A stretch of DNA of 26,611 bases, taken from NCBI RefSeq assembly GCF_004010195.1, contig NC_057759.1:5269047-5295657 (forward strand), read 5' to 3'. Positions within the stretch are counted from its first letter, which is position 1; each line of letters begins with the position of its first letter. Below, piece after piece: positions 5,044-26,611 of the stretch. This DNA is from Chiloscyllium plagiosum (Eukaryota). Under the pieces are notes generated by a model. It was not told where the DNA came from. It did not search any database and was given only the letters and a program-made list of their open reading frames with translations. The translations under genes were made by a program, and so were the position numbers.

Positions 5044-6844
5044 AAAAGCGTTATCTAGGAATCTCACTTAGAGGAGTCTTGTGTCTGGCCCTGGCATTCC
5101 TTGTGCGATTTCACCATTCACCTCCCTGGGTCAGGAATATGAGATTTAACTTGGTGCAGAGTCTTCTCCCCATTAGCAATTCAACTGGAGCTGTCCCTTT
5201 AGCTGCAATGACAGGTAGTTTAATCATCAAATGGAAGCCGATACAGTTTAGTATCATGTGAAATTGCAGGCTATTTCTATAAGCCTGCCTTCTAAGTTTA
5301 GATTGCTCTTTCTGTCAGACATTTGGACGATGACTGCTATGCAGCTGTCCTTACATGCCAAATACCATTCGACTCTAGGAAATACTCAAATTCCTTGCTG
5401 GTAAATGATGGCCTATTGTCCATGACTAACACGTCCAGGAATCTGTGTGCTGCAAATGATGCTCGCAACTTGTCAATTGTAATCCTGGTGTTTGACGAAT
5501 TAATTCTCTTCATGTGCAGCCACTTTGAATGGGTGTCCACAATGACAAAAAAACATACAAAGCGCCCATGAAAGGACAGGCATCATCGGCAAGTAACCGA
5601 GTCCAGGGTTTACCCGATCATTCCCATGAATGGCAGTAATTTTTGTTCTTGTTGACACTCTGAGCACAGCCACACTGATGTAGCAATGTCAGCATTCAAT
5701 CCTGGCCAACAGACAGAACTTCTCACCAACATCTTCATTGTGTGAGCCCCTGGTGGAGTTCAGCCAATATCTGGGAGGGGAGACTCAGTCTTGCTCCCCA
5801 TAATAGTATTCTGTCCTCTCCGGTGATCTGGTCTTGCCGTGTCCAGAACCATTTCAATTCCTGTTGTGATGGCCCTTTTGTTTTGCCATCGCCACCAGCT
5901 GTTTCAGTTTTGCCAGAATGGAACCTTTATGTGTCCACAGTCCTCAGCAGTGATCAGAAGGGTGACCAGAAAGTTAAAATCCAGGGCAGTTTCTTCCAAG
6001 GGAGACACTGCCAGTGGTGTATCCACCAGAGAGATATTCCTCAAGGCACCCACAGTACCATTTGGCTTCCCAGACAATGTTCCGACTTGTAACTGCATAC
6101 TCAGAATAAGAGCTCACCACTGAACTTGACCTGAGTCTGTGGGCGGCATGGTCCTGTCCTCATTAAGTAACTCTGGCAGGAGTTCATGATCCATTACTAC
6201 CACAAATTTAGATCTGCAAAAGGTACTGATGGAACTTTCTCACACCAAAGATAACTACTATCTGGGTGTATCAGCCAATGTCTGGGAAGCGCATGCTAGC
6301 AGGCGTTCCTCTCTGCTGGATTCACCAGTAACCCAACACTATCCCTGATACCGTACAGGGATGCATCGCATGTCAGCACCACATCTAGCTTATGATCATA
6401 GTGTGCCACACCTTAGATAACAATAGTGTTTTTATTTTCACTTCCCTAAAGGCAACATCTTCACCATCAGGCCATTTCCTAAGCTGATCCTTTTTCTATA
6501 GCAAACATAAGGATGCTTAGACAGAGGCAAGGTGATATTTGAATTTTCTGTAATATCAACACAGGGAAAGACCTATGCTCTGGTACAGGTGTGAGAGCCA
6601 AGCACCTTTGATCTCCCTCACATCATCTTCCACTGGACCTAACTCAATCTTGTTGATGCTGTAGTGCAAGTAGGTCACTTGTGGTGCCTGGAACACTAAT
6701 TTTTCCTTCCAAAGGCAGACCCAGTAGGTCCAAGATCTGTAAATCAACGAGGTAAAAACAATGACTGCAGATGCTGGAAACCAGATTCTGGATTAGTGGT
6801 GCTGGAAGAGCACAGCAGTTCAGGCAGCATCCAAGGAGCTTTGA

Positions 6845-6880
6845 AATCGACGTTTCAGGCAAAAGCCCTTCATCAGGAAT
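6845..6880 (-). ncRNA. Minimal hammerhead ribozyme motif (PLE)
   Basis: ATTC-CTGATGA-A-GGGC-TTTT-GCCT-GAAAC-GTC-GATT: intact CUGANGA/GAAA/UH core, helix II, palindromic helix III. Confidence 0.8.
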
Positions 6881-7019
6881 AAAGGCAGTGAGCCTGGAGC
6901 GTGGAGAGATAATGTGGAGGAGGGTGAGGGTGGGGAGAAAGTAGCATAGAGTACAATGGGTGAGTGGGAGAGGGGATGAAGGTGATAGGTCAGGGAGGAA
7001 AGGGTGGAGTGGATAGGTG

Positions 7020-7358
7020 NNNNNNNNNNNNNNNNNNNNNNNNNNNNNNNNNNNNNNNNNNNNNNNNNNNNNNNNNNNNNNNNNNNNNNNNNNNNNNNNN
7101 NNNNNNNNNNNNNNNNNNNNNNNNNNNNNNNNNNNNNNNNNNNNNNNNNNNNNNNNNNNNNNNNNNNNNNNNNNNNNNNNNNNNNNNNNNNNNNNNNNNN
7201 NNNNNNNNNNNNNNNNNNNNNNNNNNNNNNNNNNNNNNNNNNNNNNNNNNNNNNNNNNNNNNNNNNNNNNNNNNNNNNNNNNNNNNNNNNNNNNNNNNNN
7301 NNNNNNNNNNNNNNNNNNNNNNNNNNNNNNNNNNNNNNNNNNNNNNNNNNNNNNNNNN
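7020..7358. other. Assembly gap (339 N)
   Basis: Run of N; lies where the PLE GIY-YIG domain would be expected. Confidence 1.
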
Positions 7359-8940
7359 TGGGTTGTAGGGGGGCGTGGACCTGACCAGGTAGTCACGGAG
7401 GGAACGGTCTTTGCGGAAGGCGGAAAGGGGTGGGGAGGTAAATGTTCATTATTGGTCTTCCCACTTATTAGCAAATCATGCAGATAAATGGAGACCTTGG
7501 GTAGATCTTGCAAACTGTTTTCCATTATGTTCTGGAAAAAGACTTGGGTTAAGGTTACCCCAAAAGGCCATCTCATATACTGATACAAAGCCTTATAGGT
7601 ATTAGTTGTAGCATAATTAGGGAATCCTAATCTAACCGCAACTGCATGTATTCATGGTTGATGTCCAGCTTCGTCAAGAACAACCCCAGCAAACACCCGC
7701 CCACCCCAGCTAGTTTTGCATATGAATCCTCCAGGCAAGGGATTAATTGTTCTGAGACTTCTCTGAAAAGTTTTCAGGTATTTAATTAGGACTTCGCTCC
7801 GGCAGCCATTTTCTAATCAAAATATGTTTAGCCAATCAAGTTGAATCTTTCTCACCCAATTCCACCCCACCGTAAACTTTTGCTACAGTAGTAACTCAAC
7901 CAGCAACTTCTCATAAGGGACCAGAACTGAAGTTGTACCCTTAAACAGTAGGCGTTCCCCAGTATAGGTTCTCAGCCTGGCCGAGATCTTCCACAAACTT
8001 TGGTAAAAATTGGGTCCACAATCAATGATACAGCCACATGACAGCGACCTCCATTAGACCTGTGTGACTATTTAATGAGACATTTATTTTGGTTGGTTCA
8101 GGTTTGGATGTGAATCAGCAATTTAATTGTTCTAAACCAGCTGCAGGTGGACTTTCAAAAGGTGTGTACACTCCTGGATACTGGACTATGAGTTCTCTAA
8201 GTGGGACCATTTTGCTGTCTCAATGTTGTGTGCCAGCAGAAATTAAAAGGGCCAGTCAGCCTGGATCCTTGAGAAAATTCTAACCATTTAGTCATGGCTT
8301 TGTTTAAGTTTTTGCTGTGGGTAGACTGAAGGGGTCTTCTGCTTCAAATAGGTCCTGAGTGTGGCTGTCCAATTGCTCTCACTCAAGCCATGTTCATTAA
8401 GGTCAGTCAGCCTGGCGAGGGTACCCACTTCAGTTGGCATACTCTGTAAATCAAAAGCTGCACATGCTGCATTTTCTAATGATAAAGCCAATTGTGGTGC
8501 CAGTTTGAAATCTAGTTGGACTTCAGTGAGTAGGTGCTTTTGCATGGTCACATCATTAATCCCACATACTAATCACCTCTCAGCATCTCACAAGGGTTAA
8601 TCCAAAATCACATGCCTCTGCCAGTGTCTCAGTGTCTCAGAATTAGTGGAGGCTGTGGTCATCATGTTGCTTAGCTAAATCTGTCAACTCATGAAAGGAT
8701 TGAGTATCTGCTGCCTCCTGGAAAGTTAGGTACCTAATGACCAAAAGAGCTGTGGTCCACACTGTCGGGAGAATTACTTATTGCTCTTCATCTGCCCCAA
8801 TTTCATCATATCCACATACTGTGCTCAGTCTTTGGCAGGAACTAACAAATCAAGCTTCCCAAATAGCGGTTTGATGCCAGAAATGTTTACACTAATTCAA
8901 AGTCAACTATAAAGTGAATCACTTCAGGGGTATGCTTTTC

Positions 8941-16640: not shown

Positions 16641-17185
16641 ATTCAGCCCAAGTCCAGATGCAGGAAACAGTAAAGAAACTGCATATTGACCTTCATAGTG
16701 AGAGGATTAGAGTACAGGAGCAGGGATGTCTCGCTGCAGTTTCACAGTGCATTGTTAAGGCCACAGTTGGAAGATTGAGTACAGTCTTGGTCTCCTTATC
16801 TGAGGAAGGATGTTCTTGCTCTAGTGGGTGTGCAGTGAAGGTTTACCAGATTGATTCCTGAAATGGCAGGACTGATGTACGAAGGAGATCGAGTAAGTTC
16901 AGATTATATTTGCTGGAATTTAGATGAATGAGAAGTTGTTGTACATTATATAAGCACTGCTGCCTCACAGTGCCAGTGATCAGGTTCGATTCTAGCCTCG
17001 GGCAATATCTGTTTGGAGTTTACATATTCTCACTGTGCATGCGTGGTAATCCCACAATCCAAAGATGTGCAGATTAGATGAATTGGCTATGCTAAATTGT
17101 CCATGGTGTTCAGGGATGTGTAGGTTAGGTGCACAAAGTTAAAAAATCACACATCAGGTTATGGTACAACAGGTTTAATTGGAAA

Positions 17186-17220
17186 CACTAGCTTTTGAAG
17201 CGCTGCTCCTTCATCAGGTA
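17186..17220 (-). ncRNA. Minimal hammerhead ribozyme motif (decayed)
   Basis: TAC-CTGATGA-A-GGAGC-AGC-GCTTC-AAAAGC-TA-GTG; catalytic G12 changed to A. Confidence 0.7.
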
Positions 17221-17660
17221 GTGGTGAAACAGGATCATAAGACACAGAATTTATATCCAGCGATTACAGTGTCATACAGCGATAAGTAAATCTGGATTAA
17301 GTCTTTCATCTTTTAGAATGGGTTGCAAATTTCAGTTCATTAATATGCAATCCTAGAACTTCTTTTAAGTCAGCTTCTGAAGATCATGTTATAAAATTTT
17401 ATAAAAAGAAGCGACATTTCAACTCAGACAATTAAAGTTGTGATGTCAGGGTCTGTCTGTATCCCAATCCTGAGCCAGTCAGGTTCGATTTCCAAAGTGG
17501 AATTTACAAAAGACATGTATTAACTGCCTTCATTGAACCGAAACATGCACACGTTCTAAAAGATGACAGACTTAATAATCCAGTTTGCTCAATATATCAC
17601 TGCATGACCCTGTAATCTACTCATATAAATTCTGTGTCTTGTGATGTTATACACCACAAC

Positions 17661-17695
17661 CACCTGATGAAGGAGCAGCACTCGGAACCTCGTAC
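17661..17695 (+). ncRNA. Minimal hammerhead ribozyme motif (decayed)
   Basis: CAC-CTGATGA-A-GGAGC-AGC-ACTCG-GAACCTCGT; GAAA/helix III degenerate. Confidence 0.6.
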
Positions 17696-18549
17696 TTCCA
17701 AGTAAACCTGTTAGATCATAACCTGGTGATGTGTGATTTTTAAATTTGTCCACCCTAGTGGCTCCACCACATCATAGGTTAGGTGCATTAGTCAGGAGGA
17801 AATACATTGTAGGGGAATGGGTCTGGGTCGGTTACTCTTCGGAGGCTCGGTGTGGACTTGTTTAGCCGAAGGGCCTATTTCTACACTGTACGGATTCTAT
17901 TCTAAAAACATTCGAACAAGACTGTGGAAGCAGGAAAGATGTCCCAACGACCAACGGGATTCCACAAGCAGGAGTTACAGCTTTAGGATAAGGGATAAAC
18001 CTTTCAGAACTGAGGAGAAATGCCTTCACCCAGAGCGAGTGAAGAGCCTGTGGGATTCACTCCCACAGAAAGTAGCTGAGGCCAAACGATTGTGTTTTCA
18101 AGAAGGGGGTAGATATGCTCTTGTGGTTGAAGGGACCAAAAGATGTGGATTGGGGGAGGGAGTGTATGCAGAATTCGGGAATTGAGCTCAATGATCAGCC
18201 ACAATCCTATTGAGGGGCCAAATGGCCTACTCCTGCCCCTACCTTCTGTGTTTCTGTGATTTTTCTTTATAAATATAGCCAGGAATTAACACCTCTGATT
18301 TCCAACAGCAAAAATGTCTCAGTGTTTCCAAATAAATTTCACACATCCTCAAAGACAATCCTCACACACTCTTCAGTGCAATTATGAAGAAATACAATAT
18401 TTATCCTGCAGGGGAGGACAGTGTTGATTGCTTACCAAATGGATTATGGTTGGAAAAGGTGTTGCAATTGAGAATGCAGCCACTGATGCTGATTGACTTA
18501 AATAGCAGATATTGCTTCAGTTTTACACAACATTAATTGGTTAGGGTGT

Positions 18550-19372: not shown

Positions 19373-19449
19373 AAGGGAGTGATGTGCCATTGGAGGGTCA
19401 GGGCTGAGAGAGTGCCGCTCTATCGGAGGGTCAGTGCTGAAGGAGTGCC
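19373..19449 (+). repeat. 33-bp period minisatellite (~2.3 units)
   Basis: ggagggtcag at 19392 and 19425; unit approximately gagtgccgctctatcggagggtcagtgctgaag. Confidence 0.7.
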
Positions 19450-20967
19450 CATAATTCTGTTCAACTTTGGCAGCAGTATGGATTCTTTATCTCATCAGTA
19501 ACCCCTATCCTTAATGTTACCTATGATGCTAATCGCCTCATTGCAATTCAATTTCCCTGTCAATTGGCAATTATCAAATGTTCTGCTCACTCCTCTGATG
19601 CTTCCGATGTCACTAAAGGCAACAACGCTGCTGACGCAGCTGCTAAGAAAGCAGCTCTTGAGCAAAAAGACATGGATACTAAAATGACGAATAGGAAACC
19701 AAAGAGAGACTCTCCTACTGCCTCTTCTGACACCCCGACCATGCCTGATCTAAAGCAAACAGGGGGATGCTTCTGATGAGAAAAGATAAAGATGGATGAA
19801 TCATGGTTATTATCTGAATAGTTATCATAAGCGTTCGGTTACGCCAGTTGGACAGACACATCTGCCTGACTCACTTTTGCCTATTCTAGTTGATTATGTT
19901 CATACGCACACACGTGTATGTATGGAGGGAATGGTGGATAGAATTCTCCAATCTTGGTGGAATTCCAACCTGCAAGAAAAAGCAGAACAAGCAGCTGCAA
20001 ATTGCCTAATTCGTCAATAGTATAATCCCGGGAAAGGAATAAAGTGTCCACCAGGTGAAACTCCTTTGCCAAGTGCACCTTTTGATACTATCCAGTTAGA
20101 TTTTATAGTTACCTAGATGCCATGATTATAAGTATTGCTTAGTGATAATCGATCTATTTAGTAATGGATTGAAGCTTATCCCTGTACTGACTGCACAGCA
20201 ACATACTACTTGTAAAATTCTGTTTAGGAAAATCATACCCAGATTTGGAATACCAGTAACTGTCTCTTCTGATAATGGCCCCCACTTCTGTGTGGAGCTA
20301 AACAAGGAACTATGTAAGAGCTTGAATATGACTCAAAACTTCCATTGTGACAACCATCCCCAAGCAGTGAGAATTGTAGAAAGAGCCAATGGTACCCTAA
20401 AAGGTCAGCTAAGCAAATTGGTAGAAGAAACAGGCCTTAATTGGCTGCAAGTATTCCCAATCGCCCTTTTTAATATGAGAACCAGGACACAGAAAAAGAC
20501 AGGATTCTCGGTGGTTGAACTAATACATGGAAAGCCCCTGAGGACTCCCTGGTTTGTACCATTAACTGCCCAACACCTTGTTGAGGTACATTTCATGGCA
20601 GAAGAGATGCACAGGTACCTTTTTAAGCTAACCAAAGCACTATGGTCTTAGAACAAAAAAAAAGAAAATTTACAGCCCAGGAACAGGCCCTTCGGCCCTC
20701 CAGGCCTGGGCCGATCCAAATGTACTGTCTTATCCTCAACAAGTCAAATAAACCTAACAGATACCAAGGAAGGAAGAAGAAAGAGCTCCAACGTTTAAAG
20801 ACACTGAGCCTGGTGACTACATTCTATTAAAGACTTTATGCGTGGAAATTTGGGACCCCCGGAAAGGTCCTTATCAAGTTCTTCTGACAACTGAAACTGC
20901 AGTAAGGGTAGAAGGATGCTCAACATGGGTCTAAAAAGGACATTGCAAGCTTGTAGCCCCCTCGTAG
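19450..20967 (+). pseudogene. pol: Endogenous retrovirus pol 3' part (RNase H + integrase), class I, epsilon-like
   Basis: LWQQYGF..AIIKCSAH..KGNNAADAAAKKAA (RNase H); CLIRQ zinc-finger remnant; PFDTIQLDFI, IDLFS, IPRFGIP..SDNGPHF, HPQAVRIVERANG (DDE core); PGDY..GPYQVLLTTETAVRVEG..WV..HCK (GPY/F C-terminus); frameshifts and stops. Confidence 0.93.
20651..20726 (-). mobile_element. 76-bp CR1 3'-tail insertion in ERV integrase with 6-bp TSD
   Basis: TSD GTCTTA at 20645-20650 and 20727-20732; removal restores KALWSYPQQVK; same tail family as ~23931-24006. Confidence 0.9.
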
Positions 20968-21570
20968 TTCTAGTGTTAGTACTGATACAGGCATCCGATG
21001 AAAGTACATGCGTCCAAGTGTAACCAACCCATCTGTGATATCTCAGACCAGCTAAAACTCCAATGTGACTGTATAAATGAAACCTGTACTAATACCATTG
21101 GAAGTTATGAATGCAGTTGCCCAGCTGAAACTCATTTAAATTACTCACATTGCATATTCAAACATCACTCTCGACCTTATTGTCATCCTTGCAACACTTC
21201 TATGCCAGTCAACATGAGATAGCACAATTCCATAACCTCGTCCATTCCGTCAACTGAAAATTGCTACCTTGAGATGCTTGTCTGTTCCCTTTTCAAAATG
21301 AACCATACAGACTGCAGTATTTAACACATAGTACAGAAATCACCAAACCCTAAGGCATCTATTGCCATGAGACTGACCACTTATACCTTCTTCATGGAAC
21401 CTACCGCCACTGACAGAAATACCTTTACACGTTTCCTGGATTCAGAAGCTACAGTAATTAAGACAAGCTGGAAAGCTGAAGAAAGATCAAAAATACTATG
21501 CACTCCCAATCCTCCTGTTACTAATGGTTTCTTTATTCAAGCTAAACCCCCTGAACTATGCTCACTCTTC
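20916..21570 (+). pseudogene. env: Env-position glycoprotein N-terminus: signal peptide + EGF-like domain + Cys-containing ectodomain, 3' truncated
   Basis: ATG at 20916/20925 overlapping the IN end: MLNMGLKRTLQACSPLVVLVLVLIQASDESTC; one frameshift ~21010-21019 into a frame running to 21570 with two stops (21220, 21322); four N-glycosylation sequons; TM subunit absent, so env identity is positional. Confidence 0.7.
21034..21153 (+). other. EGF-like domain (calcium-binding/Asx-hydroxylation type) coding segment
   Basis: CDISDQLKLQCDCINETCTNTIGSYECSCPAETHLNYSHC; 21085-21120 exactly fits C-x-[DN]-x4-[FY]-x-C-x-C. Confidence 0.8.
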
Positions 21571-21668
21571 AGGAATCCTGAGGAAGGGCTTATGCCCAAA
21601 ACGTCGATTCTCCTGTTCCCTGGATGCTGCCTGACCTGCTGCGCTGTTCCAGCAACACATTTTCAGCT
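21571..21668 (+). mobile_element. Short PLE terminal fragment (related to the terminal part of the 6745-7437 PLE)
   Basis: cctgaggaagggcttatgcccaaaacgtcgattctcctg..ggatgctgcctgacctgctgcgctgttccagca aligns with the reverse complement of ~6798-6880. Confidence 0.85.
21573..21610 (+). ncRNA. Minimal hammerhead ribozyme motif (G12 to A)
   Basis: GAATC-CTGAGGA-A-GGGC-TTAT-GCCC-AAAAC-GTC-GATTC: perfect 5-bp helix I and 4-bp helix II. Confidence 0.75.
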
Positions 21669-21669
21669 A

Positions 21670-24006
21670 TAAAGATATCTGTCAGGGCCCCAGCTCTTTC
21701 CTCTCTTTCCTCCCCGAGCAACCTGGGATAAATCCCATTCGGTTCTGGGGATTTGTCCACCATAATAACCTCTAGCCTATCCAACATATCTTCCCTACTT
21801 ACGTCAACATGATCCAGAGTAATAAAGCTTCTACCTCTAATCTCAATAGTCATCATGTTCCTCTCCTCCGTGAACACTGATGCAAAGTAATAATTCAGAA
21901 TCACACCCATTTTCTCAGGTTTGACACACGGCCTTCCTTCCTTATCCTTTAGTGAACCAATCCTTTCTATAGTTACCCGCCTGCTTCTTAAGAATGAAAT
22001 GCTTTGGGATTCTCCATAATACTGCTTGCTGAAGCTATTCCATGACCCCTTTTAGCCTGCTTGATTCATCGTTTAAGACTGGTCCTACTCTCCCAATATT
22101 CCTCCAGGGCCCATTCTGTTCTTAGCTGCCTGGACCTCTTGTACACTTCCCTTTTCCTCTTGGCTAGTCGTACGATTTTTTCTGTCATCCACAGTTCATG
22201 ATTCTTGCCTTTTCTATCCCTTGTTTTCAATGGGACATGCCTATCCTGCACTATCTTCAACCTATCTTTGAAAGCCTCCCACATATCAAATGTGGACATC
22301 TCTTCAAATAGCTGTGTCCAATCCCCATTTCACAGCTCCTGCCTAATTTTGATATAATTGGCCTTGGCCCAATTTAGTACACTTCCCTTCGGACCACTCT
22401 CATCTTTGTCAAAGAGTATTCTAAAACTTACAGAATTGTGGTCACTGTTCCCAAAGGAATTCCCCACCGCAACTTCTACCACCTGACCTGGCTCATTCCC
22501 CAACACCAGGACCAATATGGCTCCTTCCCTTGTCGGACTATTGACATACTGCTCTAGAAAACTCTCCTGGACACTTCTTAAAAATTCTGCCCCATCCAGA
22601 TCTTGGACACTAAGTGTATCCCAGTCAATGTTGGGAAAATTAAACACAGGTGAGGCGCCGGAGGAATGCAGGGTTGCTAATGTTGTCCCCCTGTACAAGA
22701 AGGGTATTAGGGGTATTCCGGGTAACTACAGACCAGTGAGCCTGATGTCAATGGTGGAAAAGTTGCTGGAGAAGGTACTGAAGAATAAAATCTATTTATA
22801 TTTCAAAAAGAATGGGCTTATTGGTGATAGGCAACCTGCCTTTGTGTGGGGAAATCATGCCTTACCAACTTAATAGAGTTCTTTAAAGGAAGTGACCAAG
22901 TTGTTCGATAAAGGAAGGGCTGCGCATGTCATACACATGGACTTTAGTAAGGCATTTGATAAGGTCCCCCATGGTAAACTAATGGAGAAAATGAAGTCAC
23001 ATGGTATGCAGGGTGTTCTAGCTAGGTGGATAAAGAACTGGTTGAGCAACAGGAAACAGAGAGTAGTAGCTGAAGTGAGTTTCTCGAAAAGGAGAAAGGT
23101 GACTGGTGGTATTCCACAGGGATCAGTGCTGGGGCCATTGTTGGTATGATCAGCAAGTTTTCAGATGACATGAAGATTGGTGGAGTAGCAGAAAGCATAG
23201 GGGACTGTCAAAGAATACAGGAGAATATAGATAGACTGGAGAGTTGGGTGGAGAACTGGCAGATGGAGTTCAAACCAGGCAAATGTGAGGTGATGCATTT
23301 TAGGAAGTCTAATTCTAGAGCAAATTATACAGTAATTGGAAGAGCCTTGGCAAAAAATGATGAGCAGAGAGATCTGGGAGTTCATGTCCATTGTACGCTG
23401 AATTTTGCTGCACAGGTGGTCAAGAAGGCATATGGTATGCTTGCCTTCATCATACAGCGTACTGCGTATGAGTTGGCAGGTCATGTTAAAATTCTACAAG
23501 ACATTGTTTCAGCCACATTTAGAATACTGTGTCCAGTTCTGGTCGCCACATTACCAAAAGGGTGCAGAGAATGTTTACGAGGATGTCGCCTGGTATGGAA
23601 AGTGTGAGCTATGAAAAGGAGTTGAGTAGGTTAGGATTGTTTTCATTTGAAGGTAGGAGATTGAGGTCTACAAAATCAAGAAGGGTATAGGCAGGGTAGA
23701 TAGAGATAAGCTTTTTCACAGGGTGACGCATTCAAGGTGAGAGGTGAAAAGTTTAAGGGGGATATACATGACAATTACTCTTCACAGAGGGTGGTAAGTG
23801 CCTGAAACGCATTGCGAGCAGAGGTAGTAGAGGCAGGCAGGCAAATTCATTTAAGATGGCTCTGGACAGATGCATGAGTAGGTGGGGAGCAGAGGGACAC
23901 AGATGCTTAGGAATTGGGCGACAGATTTAGACAGTGGATTTCAATCCATTCAGGCCTGGAGTGCCAAAGGGCCTGTTCTTGGGCTATAAATTTTCTTTAT
24001 TCTTTA
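21670..24006 (+). mobile_element. CR1 LINE with inverted 5' segment (21670-22644 minus, 22640-24006 plus)
   Basis: Minus part runs FNFPNIDW..GNSDHN..AGALTDIF; plus part starts LNTGEAPEE and runs through RT (FSDD) to the tail. Confidence 0.92.
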
Positions 24007-24750: not shown

Positions 24751-25136
24751 AGTGGGAGCAGCGGCCGAGTTGAGGTGAACCCGGGAGACTACAGCTAAGG
24801 TAAGAGTTTTTTTCAAAATTACTTACCTGTAGCGGGCATCGGTGTTTTGTTTTCTCTCTCCTTCACAGAAAGAGCGGGAGCAGCAGAGGAAGTGACGGCA
24901 AGCAGAGGGGCAGCCGGGAAGGAGAACTGTGAGTATAGATACTCACTGTTTCACCACCAACGGTCATTTCAGTGGGAGCAGCGGCCGAGTTGAGGTGAAC
25001 CCGGGAGACTACAGCTAAGGTAAGAGCTTTTTTCAAAATTACTTCCCTGTAGCGGGCATCGGTGTTTTGTTTTCTCTCTCCTTCACAGAAAGAGCGGGAG
25101 CAGCAGAGGAAGTGACGGCAAGCAGGGGGCAGCCGG
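24751..25136 (+). repeat. Tandem 220-bp 5'UTR monomers (1 full + ~0.75)
   Basis: agtgggagcagcggccgagttgagg starts at 24751 and 24971; near-identical over ~166 bp. Confidence 0.95.
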
Positions 25137-25352
25137 AGACCCGGAAGCAGTTAGTGTAAGCTTAGCTGGGTCAGTTTTTTTCCCCTTTAAAAGCGTGAAG
25201 GAGAGAAACCCGAGGCACTACACGGGTAGTGCCTCCCACCCGCCCTCCTCCTCTAACCTAATAATAACATCTATTGTGGCAAGCAGGTAAGTGCTGAATT
25301 TTGCTTGTATTATTTAGACACAGTTTTTGTTTAAACAGTTAGCTTTAGAGGG

Positions 25353-26279
25353 ATGGCAGTGAAGGCAGTGCAATGTTCCTCCTGCAACATGTATGAGGTG
25401 AGGGATGCCATCGACGTCCCTGCCGATTACACTTGCAGGAAGTGCACCCACCTCCAGCTCCTCCAAGACCGTGTTAGGGAACTGGAGCTGGAGTTGGATG
25501 AACTTCGGATCATTCGGGAGGCAGAGGGGGTCATAGATCAGAGTTATAGGGAAGTAGTAACCCCAAAGATGGCAGATAGATGGGTTACAGTGAGGGGGAC
25601 TGGGAGGAAACAGCCAGTGCAGGGACCTCCTGCGGCCATTCCCCTCAAGAACAAGTATACCGTTTTGGATACTTGTGGGGGGGATGACTTACCAGGGGTA
25701 AGTAACGGGGCTCAGGGCTCTGGCCCGGAGCCTGCCCCCGTTACTCAGAAGGGAAGGGTGAAGAAGAGCAGAGCAGTAGTAATTGGGGACTCGATAGTTA
25801 GGGGCACAGATAGGCGGTTTTGTGGGAACGAGAGAGACTCACGTTTGGTATGTTGCCTCCCAGGTGCAAGGGTACGTGATGTCTCTGATCGTGTTTCCCG
25901 GGTCCTGGAGGGGGAGGGGGACCAGCCCGAAGTCGTGGTCCATATTGGCACCAACGACATAGGTAGGAGGAGTGCCGAGGATGTTAGACAGGCTTTCAGG
26001 GAGCTAGGTTGGAAGCTCAGAGTTAGAACGAACAGAGTTGGTGTCTCTGGTTTGTTACCCGTGCCACGTGATAGAGATTCGAGGAATAGGGAAAGAGAAC
26101 ACTTAAATGCGTGGCTACAGGGATGGTGCAGGAGGGAGGGATTCCGGTTTTTGGATAACTGGGGTTCCTTCTGGGAACGGTGGGACCTCTACAAACAGGA
26201 TGGTCTACACCTGAACCTGAGGGGCACCAGTATCCTTAGTGGGAGGTTTGCTAGTGCTCTTGGGGGAGGTTTAAACTAA
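25353..26279 (+). CDS. CR1 ORF1p, 308 aa: N-terminal zinc finger, coiled coil, SGNH/GDSL esterase domain
   Basis: CSSC..CRKC; LQDRVRELELELDEL; SGNH blocks IGDS, PGA, HIGTND, DGLH; uninterrupted. Confidence 0.95.
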   Translation: MAVKAVQCSSCNMYEVRDAIDVPADYTCRKCTHLQLLQDRVRELELELDELRIIREAEGVIDQSYREVVTPKMADRWVTVRGTGRKQPVQGPPAAIPLKNKYTVLDTCGGDDLPGVSNGAQGSGPEPAPVTQKGRVKKSRAVVIGDSIVRGTDRRFCGNERDSRLVCCLPGARVRDVSDRVSRVLEGEGDQPEVVVHIGTNDIGRRSAEDVRQAFRELGWKLRVRTNRVGVSGLLPVPRDRDSRNREREHLNAWLQGWCRREGFRFLDNWGSFWERWDLYKQDGLHLNLRGTSILSGRFASALGGGLN

Positions 26280-26350
26280 CTCTGCAGGGGCATGGGAACC
26301 CAGACTGTAGCTTTAGGGTGCAGGACCTAGAATGTAGGGAGGTTAGGAAC

Positions 26351-26611
26351 ATGGCATCAATGTCCAAGGAGGGTGCCTGTAAACAGGAAAGTGGCTTGAA
26401 GTGTGTATACTTCAATGCAAGAAGTATACGAAATAAGCTCGGTGAACTTGCAGCGTGGGTTGGTACCTGGGACTTCAATGTTGTGGCTATTACGGAGACA
26501 TGGCTAGAACAGGGACAGGATTGGCTGTGGCAGGTTCCAGGATTTAAATGTTGTGGGGGGGGCGGAGGTGGGGGTAAAAGAGGGGGAGGTATGGCATTGC
26601 TTGTCAAAGAT
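26351..26611 (+). CDS. CR1 ORF2p N-terminus (APE endonuclease), partial; frame open from 26255
   Basis: LKCVYFNARSIRNK..VVAITETWL..KRGGGMALLVK; no stop to the window end; -1 frame relative to ORF1. Confidence 0.92.
   Translation, partial: MASMSKEGACKQESGLKCVYFNARSIRNKLGELAAWVGTWDFNVVAITETWLEQGQDWLWQVPGFKCCGGGGGGGKRGGGMALLVKD

Follow-up and report, generated by a model that had tools for sequence, protein, structure and literature searches.

The window analysed here is a stretch of 26,611 nucleotides from the shark Chiloscyllium plagiosum (NC_057759.1, positions 5,269,047 to 5,295,657 of the forward strand; coordinates given below count from its first letter). Positions 19445-21570 are a truncated, segmentally duplicated and decayed piece, ∼2.1 kb in length, of a class I endogenous retrovirus (ERV). 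A preliminary description, made from the letters of the window without database searches, had noted a stretch resembling epidermal growth factor (EGF) modules in the frame after integrase (IN) and had proposed that a host EGF was captured into the surface subunit (SU) of the envelope protein (Env) or into a secreted accessory protein. The explanation that best accounts for the results overall, to which we assign a probability of roughly 0.75, is a gamma-type Env with a captured pair of host EGF modules, followed by a deletion and by decay of the copies. The EGF sequence is host-like and lies in SU as had been proposed, but the module remaining in the window is not a whole EGF.

Assignment of the EGF-bearing reading frame to env

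All the sequence features given earlier for the window were reproduced. The two ATG codons lie in a frame overlapping the last IN codons, the leader that follows is hydrophobic with a best 11-residue Kyte-Doolittle mean of 3.16, and a single frameshift separates it from the EGF-like stretch (Table 1). One exact C-x-[DN]-x4-[YF]-x-C-x-C motif for Asx hydroxylation was counted in the window, compared with 0.01 expected from 200 shuffles. The two downstream stops and the four N-glycosylation sequons (21076, 21139, 21193 and 21301) were also confirmed.

A DNA search of the same genome (3.56-Gb assembly), in which 40 of 133 candidates were scored, returned 44 matches with 78-90% identity, and the 30 best loci were read. 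Sister copies do therefore carry the segment after IN, contrary to what would be expected of a feature private to this locus. A genome search with the EGF peptide of the window revealed a second set of copies in which the two halves of the peptide matched ∼600 nt apart. Two subfamilies are thereby distinguished, a long form (25 loci holding the extra block, of which 10 were read) and a short form that includes the window copy and is represented by 30 copies chosen by likeness to the window. With a strict search pattern, 7 of the 30 short and 1 of the 10 long copies had leader and EGF-like stretch joined in one stop-free frame, apart from that of IN, results indicating that the frameshift in the window is decay of that copy.

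Judged by its sequence, the EGF-bearing open reading frame (ORF) is the env gene and encodes a gamma-type class I fusion protein rather than a separate accessory protein. The env leader overlaps the 3′ end of a class I IN in the window and in sister copies, and in the sisters the frame continues into a gamma-type Env with a CxxC motif, fusion peptide, immunosuppressive domain (ISD), CX6CC motif and membrane anchor, then a polypurine tract and long terminal repeat (LTR). Downstream stretches were available for 20 short copies, and motifs were counted over these and the 10 long copies. The CxxC motif of SU was found in 15 of 20 short and 6 of 10 long copies and the CX6CC motif of the transmembrane subunit (TM) in 15 of 20 and 5 of 10, both lying beyond the point at which the window copy breaks off. 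The fusion-peptide word was present in 12 of 20 and 6 of 10, the ISD likewise in 12 of 20 and 6 of 10, and the anchor in 10 of 20 and 2 of 10, and the TM of the family contains a heptad repeat. A basic cluster occupies the SU/TM boundary in 9 of 20 short and 6 of 10 long copies. Leader, EGF and SU are read in one stop-free frame, as are SU and TM in different copies, and these natural ORFs speak against the accessory protein that had been offered as an alternative. TLV_coat was above cut-off in one of three TM-bearing ORFs scanned (E 2.5e-7), and Atlas features placed an SU-TM ORF at 0.96 with TLV_coat clusters. No relative of the Env was found among 171, 853 and 7 candidates from protein collections, one search returning only three EGF-repeat proteins, or in phage records and viral contigs, sets that are poor in vertebrate ERVs and make for weak blanks.

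The long form contains a pair of EGF modules

The domain order that the sequences show for SU of the long form is a signal peptide, a tip domain of ∼85 residues with eight cysteines, a Thr-rich stalk of ∼67 residues, an EGF module (EGF1), a calcium-type EGF module (EGF2) and a core of ∼330 residues with the CxxC motif, after which TM follows. The 67 residues of the stalk are 33% Thr and 48% Thr, Ser and Pro combined, and 10 sequons were counted in one ORF of 350 residues; SU would thus be secreted with a heavily glycosylated front end. Among seven long ORFs covering the pair, EGF_3 matched four with 35-43.8 bits (cut-off 28.5), two were below the cut-off and one gave no match. The significant EGF match that was lacking for the window alone (hEGF E 1.3e-4 and EGF_CA E 4.2e-4, both below the Pfam cut-offs) was therefore obtained with the long form. 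Both modules, with twelve cysteines, align in register with uromodulin EGF I-II and with NELL1 (E ∼1e-4). The acidic calcium motif preceding C1 of EGF2 was present in 7 of 10 long copies, and the exact Asx-hydroxylation motif in 3 of 10, with Tyr at the aromatic position in 8 of 10. The word C-x4-[ST]-C, which is the consensus for O-fucosylation, was found between C2 and C3 of EGF1 in 5 of 10 long copies and of EGF2 in 8 of 10. As for the tip domain, the possibility of a degenerate EGF received weak EGF_STAB1-2 matches (E 0.05-0.08), and BLASTP detected no similarity between the tip and the EGF pair. The Thr-rich stalk, and perhaps the eight-cysteine tip, may derive from the same host surface protein as the pair and have been imported with it in a single piece. 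A third deletion form was also observed (L054:1113-1180) in which the hydrophobic core of the leader, the tip and the stalk are gone and both EGF modules are kept.

The short form probably arose from an in-frame deletion

The short form lacks ∼543 nt, an in-frame loss through which the tip became continuous with the part of EGF2 that holds its last four cysteines. The junction, located between C2 and C3 of EGF2, is common to all 30 short copies. The distance between its two sides was 543 nt in three of nine long copies measured and altered by later indels in the others. Over 18 bases in cysteine register the sides are identical at 10-13 positions, a modest homology that was the top match within 1.5 kb in two of three copies tested. 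A deletion in register between these similar 18-nt words would account for the loss of the stalk, of all of EGF1 and of one half of EGF2. What is missing from the short form is the stalk, EGF1, and C1-C2 with the acidic calcium motif of EGF2, neither of which was present in any of 20 short copies. Of the 30 short copies, 11 retain the exact Asx-hydroxylation motif; its aromatic residue is Tyr in 11, Phe in 4, His in 12 and not found in 3. A second deletion of ∼440 nt in SU marks the sub-branch to which the window belongs. The module described earlier as an EGF at the mature N-terminus is therefore a chimeric half-module produced by deletion within a longer Env; positions 21076-21153 are indeed EGF-derived (C3-C6 of a calcium-type EGF), but 21019-21075 come from a different N-terminal domain.

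The junction cuts through a module that only the long form has entire and host-like; of the two, the long form is therefore most probably the ancestor. The reverse polarity, with a short ancestor into which a block of 543 nt was inserted to give the long form, is very improbable. It agrees with a tree that has no outgroup and in which each group is monophyletic with respect to the other and the tips are of similar length, but it requires an insertion that completed a half-module exactly in register, and the interrupted module is complete, calcium motif included, in the long form alone, where its alignment with host EGF pairs runs through the site of the junction.

Short copies are the commoner, roughly 70 of 147 matched rows spanning the junction (counted by eye) compared with the 25 long loci. 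Searches with LTRs gave 1272 first-look candidates for the short type and 404 for the long type, of which 40 were scored each and which are not copy numbers. A pair of LTRs 9.8 kb apart on contig C37 encloses RNase H, IN and an EGF match; locus L062 gave RNase H and IN only. The subfamilies have different LTRs after a common polypurine tract, and in some short copies the LTR is ∼0.9 kb longer and shares a piece with the LTR of the long type. Contigs of two further organisms, B and C, cover the long-only block; the joint of the first deletion was found in B and that of the second in both B and C. These results indicate that the forms predate the split of those organisms, provided that the labels stand for distinct species. 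In ∼2% of one single-cell run 21 reads were obtained, none over the EGF region and 20 of them less than 90% alike.

Selection on env

A tree of the shared env segment was constructed from 28 rows, L041 and L058 being excluded as incomplete. The unrooted tree contains two star-like groups, long and short, with support of 100/100 and a median tip length of 0.076. Within groups the ratio of nonsynonymous to synonymous substitution (dN/dS) was near 1 for the longer regions (0.79-1.10) and ranged from 0.62 to 3.3 in two short regions. The within-group values fit decay after insertion, and all copies would have decayed neutrally once inserted. Co-option of a copy by the host was considered and is not supported, the within-group ratio being near 1 and none of 30 copies being open from EGF to ISD.

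Net divergence between the groups was determined from pairwise counts, keeping one of four duplicates on contig C50 and dropping rows with less than 40% coverage, with 1000 bootstraps. At a kappa of 4 the net dN/dS for long versus short was 0.16 in IN, 0.43 in leader and tip, 0.13 in the shared half of EGF2, 0.48 in SU, 0.30 in the end of SU with TM, and 0.36 in all of env. The share of bootstraps in which dS did not exceed dN was 0.000, 0.044, 0.014, 0.003, 0.000 and 0.000, respectively. Kappa values of 2 and 6 gave the same picture; estimates for the half-EGF lay at 0.10-0.14. The results show that env, including the shared half of EGF2, was under purifying selection while the master lineages diverged. 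The EGF pair would have been kept under this selection with the rest of env, a statement that for the pair holds for the shared half. Constraint on env between master lineages points to spread by infection. The comparison among copies that had been proposed for this family thus yields purifying selection between the subfamilies, not within them. Net synonymous divergence between the subfamilies was 0.09 in IN and 0.19 in env, a gap which hints that pol and env lineages have recombined with one another.

Two sub-branches of the short group (13 versus 3-4 copies) gave a dN/dS of 0.87 in env (0.74-0.94; bootstrap share 0.39) and 0.07 in IN (0.06-0.08; share 0.09), suggestive of an env that was relaxed after the deletion. 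The short lineage would have spread more widely, probably with relaxed env, by intracellular copying or by complementation, a course of events we regard as rather probable. The alternative, that the short form is a working Env in which the chimera of tip and half-EGF folds as one N-terminal EGF-like domain, corresponds to the picture first drawn from the window. A working protein would agree with several observations, namely that the deletion preserves both the frame and the cysteine register, that the chimera can be aligned with calcium-binding EGF modules of fibrillin over much of its length, that the short copies are the more numerous, and that part of the purifying signal between the groups may postdate the deletion. 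Set against this are the ratios of the short sub-branches, which have low power, the second deletion in SU of the window's sub-branch, and the loss of C1-C2 and the calcium motif of EGF2. A working short form is in our estimate distinctly unlikely, and its persistence as a passenger the more likely.

Points weighing against a captured EGF pair

Several results weigh against the explanation favoured here. All copies read are broken, and a stop-free frame from EGF to ISD was found in none of 30. The downstream Env features sought in the preliminary description (fusion peptide, ISD, CX6CC, TM and 3′ LTR) are present in sister copies, but a canonical furin site R-x-[KR]-R at the SU/TM boundary was seen only in 5 of 20 short copies and in none of 10 long copies. 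EGF_CA never reached its cut-off in long ORFs (best 22.3 bits versus 27), the C1-C2 loop being long. Two AlphaFold2 predictions gave mean confidence scores (pLDDT) of 34.6 and 35.5 and no usable model. The block of 541 nt specific to the long form, for which all 25 candidates were scored, had matches (80-91%) in loci of the family and in neither diverged host DNA nor a donor; of the Atlas leads for the pair, SUSD1 at 0.80 was under the threshold of the tool. With regard to selection, the half-EGF estimate derives from 26 codons, the long copies have a within-group dN/dS of ∼1 and selection on EGF1 and stalk is not measurable between groups, and the signal of relaxation in the short branch is weak, not significant and of low power. 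For the polarity of the deletion the unrooted tree gives no direction, and the argument is drawn from the interruption of a host-type module by the junction.

Some of these points would also be expected if the likeness to EGF were convergent in a Cys-rich SU, or if the stretch were locus-specific junk or an adjacent host exon, namely the sub-threshold matches of the window, the lack of a donor and the failed structure predictions. Such an origin is nevertheless highly implausible considering that in the long form two modules in tandem have their twelve cysteines placed as in host proteins and exceed the EGF_3 cut-off, that the segment has the same position in dozens of dispersed proviral copies, and that the pair is intronless whereas host EGF matches (L063-L065) are single-exon-like.

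Origin and role of the EGF pair

The EGF pair is without an intron and the host EGF matches L063-L065 look like single exons, which fits capture from a spliced mRNA. Most likely an exogenous ancestor would have captured the pair from spliced host mRNA before entry into the germ line. The finding that the 541-nt block matches only family loci suggests that the capture is old or was from another host. Candidate donors in the same genome were rejected; neither L061, a host array of calcium-type EGFs, nor L063-L066, of which three are small matches to generic EGF exons and one is not EGF, is specifically like the pair. The frames at L061 (G000:C9:28625600-28628400) and at C9:28620012-28620848 are open over 899 and 734 residues and encode tandem calcium-type EGFs, are intronless and look like host sequence. 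Calcium-type EGF modules are mostly encoded by one exon each, which makes intronless arrays unusual.

By analogy with host EGF pairs and mucin stalks, the stalk and pair might form a rigid, glycosylated and possibly calcium-stiffened arm that holds the tip off the virion and shields the core or aids attachment, a role proposed tentatively and at somewhat less than even odds. The pair could instead be a binding or host-mimicry module with a calcium- or O-fucose-dependent partner at the cell surface. The O-fucosylation words of EGF1 and EGF2 and the dN/dS of the half-EGF, the lowest in env, are what would be expected of such a module; the pair is however located behind tip and stalk rather than distally, and the lineage without most of it spread more widely, so that binding or mimicry in place of a spacer is unlikely. 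Growth-factor EGFs that are ErbB ligands (EGF itself and the poxvirus growth factors) contain a G-x-R-C arginine motif in the last loop. This motif was absent from the last loop of either module in translations inspected by eye, which makes growth signalling of the ErbB type unlikely and disfavours the signalling module that had been suggested, at least one of the growth-factor type; it also counts against binding. That a natural infectious vertebrate retrovirus used a host pair of EGF and calcium-EGF modules with O-fucosylation sites for attachment, tropism or mimicry is a doubtful proposition. If such use were true, the family would be a natural counterpart of engineered ligand-display Envs, and SU could evolve by importing folded host domains.

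Comparison with known systems

No natural Env with EGF modules turned up in the literature covered, in which subscription journals are largely missing, in accord with the preliminary description, whose author knew of none. In the portions of text available, an EGF domain is not mentioned in PMC4422223, PMC8672886, PMC6001957, PMC12386078 or PMC4299795, PMC12813294 mentions only EGFP, and PMC11905727 has the term only in the title of a reference. A survey of Env from ERVs of anamniotes that covers cartilaginous fish (Chen et al., bioRxiv 10.1101/2021.11.23.469661) classifies by TM only and, in the part seen, reports an OGFr captured in the Pol ORF. The gamma-type Envs described there share with the present family a class I pol and a covalent-type Env with fusion peptide, heptad repeat, ISD, CX6CC and anchor; they differ in that the term EGF does not occur in the running text of the survey, its figures and supplementary material apart (non-viral motifs are indicated in S4 Fig). 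The EGF-Env family may be one of the lineages of that survey.

According to the available part of PMC4299795, the crocodilian CrocERV29 carries KIT ligand in an ORF of its own that lies between pol and env, whereas in CrocERV31 nectin3 replaces env. Common to these elements and the present family are an intronless host surface or ligand sequence at the pol-env position and purifying selection, whereas here the host modules are fused in frame within SU of an otherwise complete Env. So far the arrangement of EGF in Env has been found in print only for engineered retroviral vectors, to the extent that the sources were accessible. Those chimeras are artificial and display an ErbB ligand whose binding to EGFR fails to bring about entry (PMC3182074, seen in part). 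They likewise have an EGF-type domain in the N-terminal part of SU, while the modules described here are natural, of uromodulin/fibrillin type and located behind the beginning of SU, internal to the tip domain.

Pairs of the type found in uromodulin (EGF I-II), NELL1 and SUSD1 have in common with the retroviral pair a short C1-C2 spacing in the first module, acidic calcium and hydroxylation motifs in the second, and an alignment in register over both. They differ in that the similarity is weak (E ∼1e-4) and the loops are longer. They are candidate donors, as are HEG1 and adhesion GPCR E.

Among solved structures the TM ectodomain (L042:1840-2358) matches GP2 chains of the filovirus glycoprotein (GP) better than syncytins or murine leukemia virus (E 2.6e-12 versus 4.5e-7 for syncytin-2). 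Filovirus GP has a mucin-like domain, and a Thr-rich stalk is present in the surface subunit here. Unlike filovirus GP, the present Env belongs to a retroviral locus with IN and LTRs, and the likeness is from TM alone; filovirus GP is not known to have EGF modules.

Known retroviral captures are separate ORFs, replacements of env, or located in pol, whereas here the modules are fused inside SU of an Env under purifying selection. This suggests a route of Env evolution by import of domains from host surface proteins that is invisible to surveys based on reverse transcriptase (RT) or TM. The family records within one genome a deletion in register, a change of LTR, an apparent relaxation of env and a wider spread, and is thus a testable case for the link between loss of env and amplification. 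The succession of IN and EGF_3 is a concrete marker for screening the genomes of fish and amphibians.

Condition of the window copy

The coordinates of the window copy and its flanks are listed in Table 1. The second Met of the leader is the one common to most copies, and cleavage of the leader is presumed near 20994. IN has as its nearest solved chain 2m9u, Integrase p46. The polypurine tract and paired LTRs are missing. Since 21666-23555 is collinear with the flank following the 3′ LTR of four copies on contig C50, the window copy is a segmental duplicate minus the rest of env and the LTR. At least five copies on G000:C50 (the window and L002-L005) share provirus and LINE (long interspersed nuclear element) flank at 85-92% and are spread over ∼5 Mb of the 8-Mb contig, a cluster that is an old segmental duplication. 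The window copy would have been duplicated on C50 and afterwards cut at both ends.

Table 1. Features of the proviral fragment and its flanks in the window.
Feature	Position	Strand	Evidence or remark
Start of 5′-truncated proviral fragment; RNase H remnant	19445..19776	+	Sisters extend further upstream; PF00075 E 2.8e-4, below cut-off
IN N-terminal part and catalytic core, with frameshifts and stops	19777..20650	+	rve PF00665 E 6e-10 on 20109-20648
Short repeat inserted in IN, missing in sister copies	20651..20727	.	Alignment gap; inverted match to 23929-24004
IN C-terminal domain, class I type; internal stop ∼20932, terminal stop 20965-20967	20728..20967	+	MLVIN_C PF18697 E 4.6e-7, above cut-off
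Env leader overlapping IN end; hydrophobic core	20916..21002	+	ATG 20916/20925; frame shifts ∼21005
First half of N-terminal eight-Cys tip domain (4 Cys)	21019..21075	+	Aligns with long-copy tip up to junction
C3-C6 half of calcium-type EGF with exact Asx-hydroxylation motif	21076..21153	+	Joined to tip at ∼21076 by ∼543-nt in-frame deletion
Start of SU core, stops 21220 and 21322; ends just 5′ of SU CxxC region	21154..21570	+	
Common short repeat where remaining env and 3′ LTR were lost	21576..21668	.	
LINE-derived flank common to four other C50 copies	21666..23555	.	88-89% collinear with post-LTR flank of L031-L034

Neighbouring elements

Further repeats were observed elsewhere in the window. 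On the minus strand at ∼5300-8600, words resembling IN, RT and gag of a Gypsy-type LTR retrotransposon were recognized by eye, with a gap of N at ∼7020-7370. A large imperfect palindrome at 17128-17759, recurring in the flanks of L039 and L043, is probably an element resembling miniature inverted-repeat transposable elements. In the region 25335-26611 an open ORF of 314 residues encodes a GDSL esterase domain (PF13472, E 4e-13), and behind it a second ORF runs past the end of the window; the arrangement resembles the 5′ end of a young LINE of CR1/L2 type. Just 5′ of the first of these ORFs a direct repeat of 159 nt is present at 24751-24909 and 24971-25129 with 98% identity.

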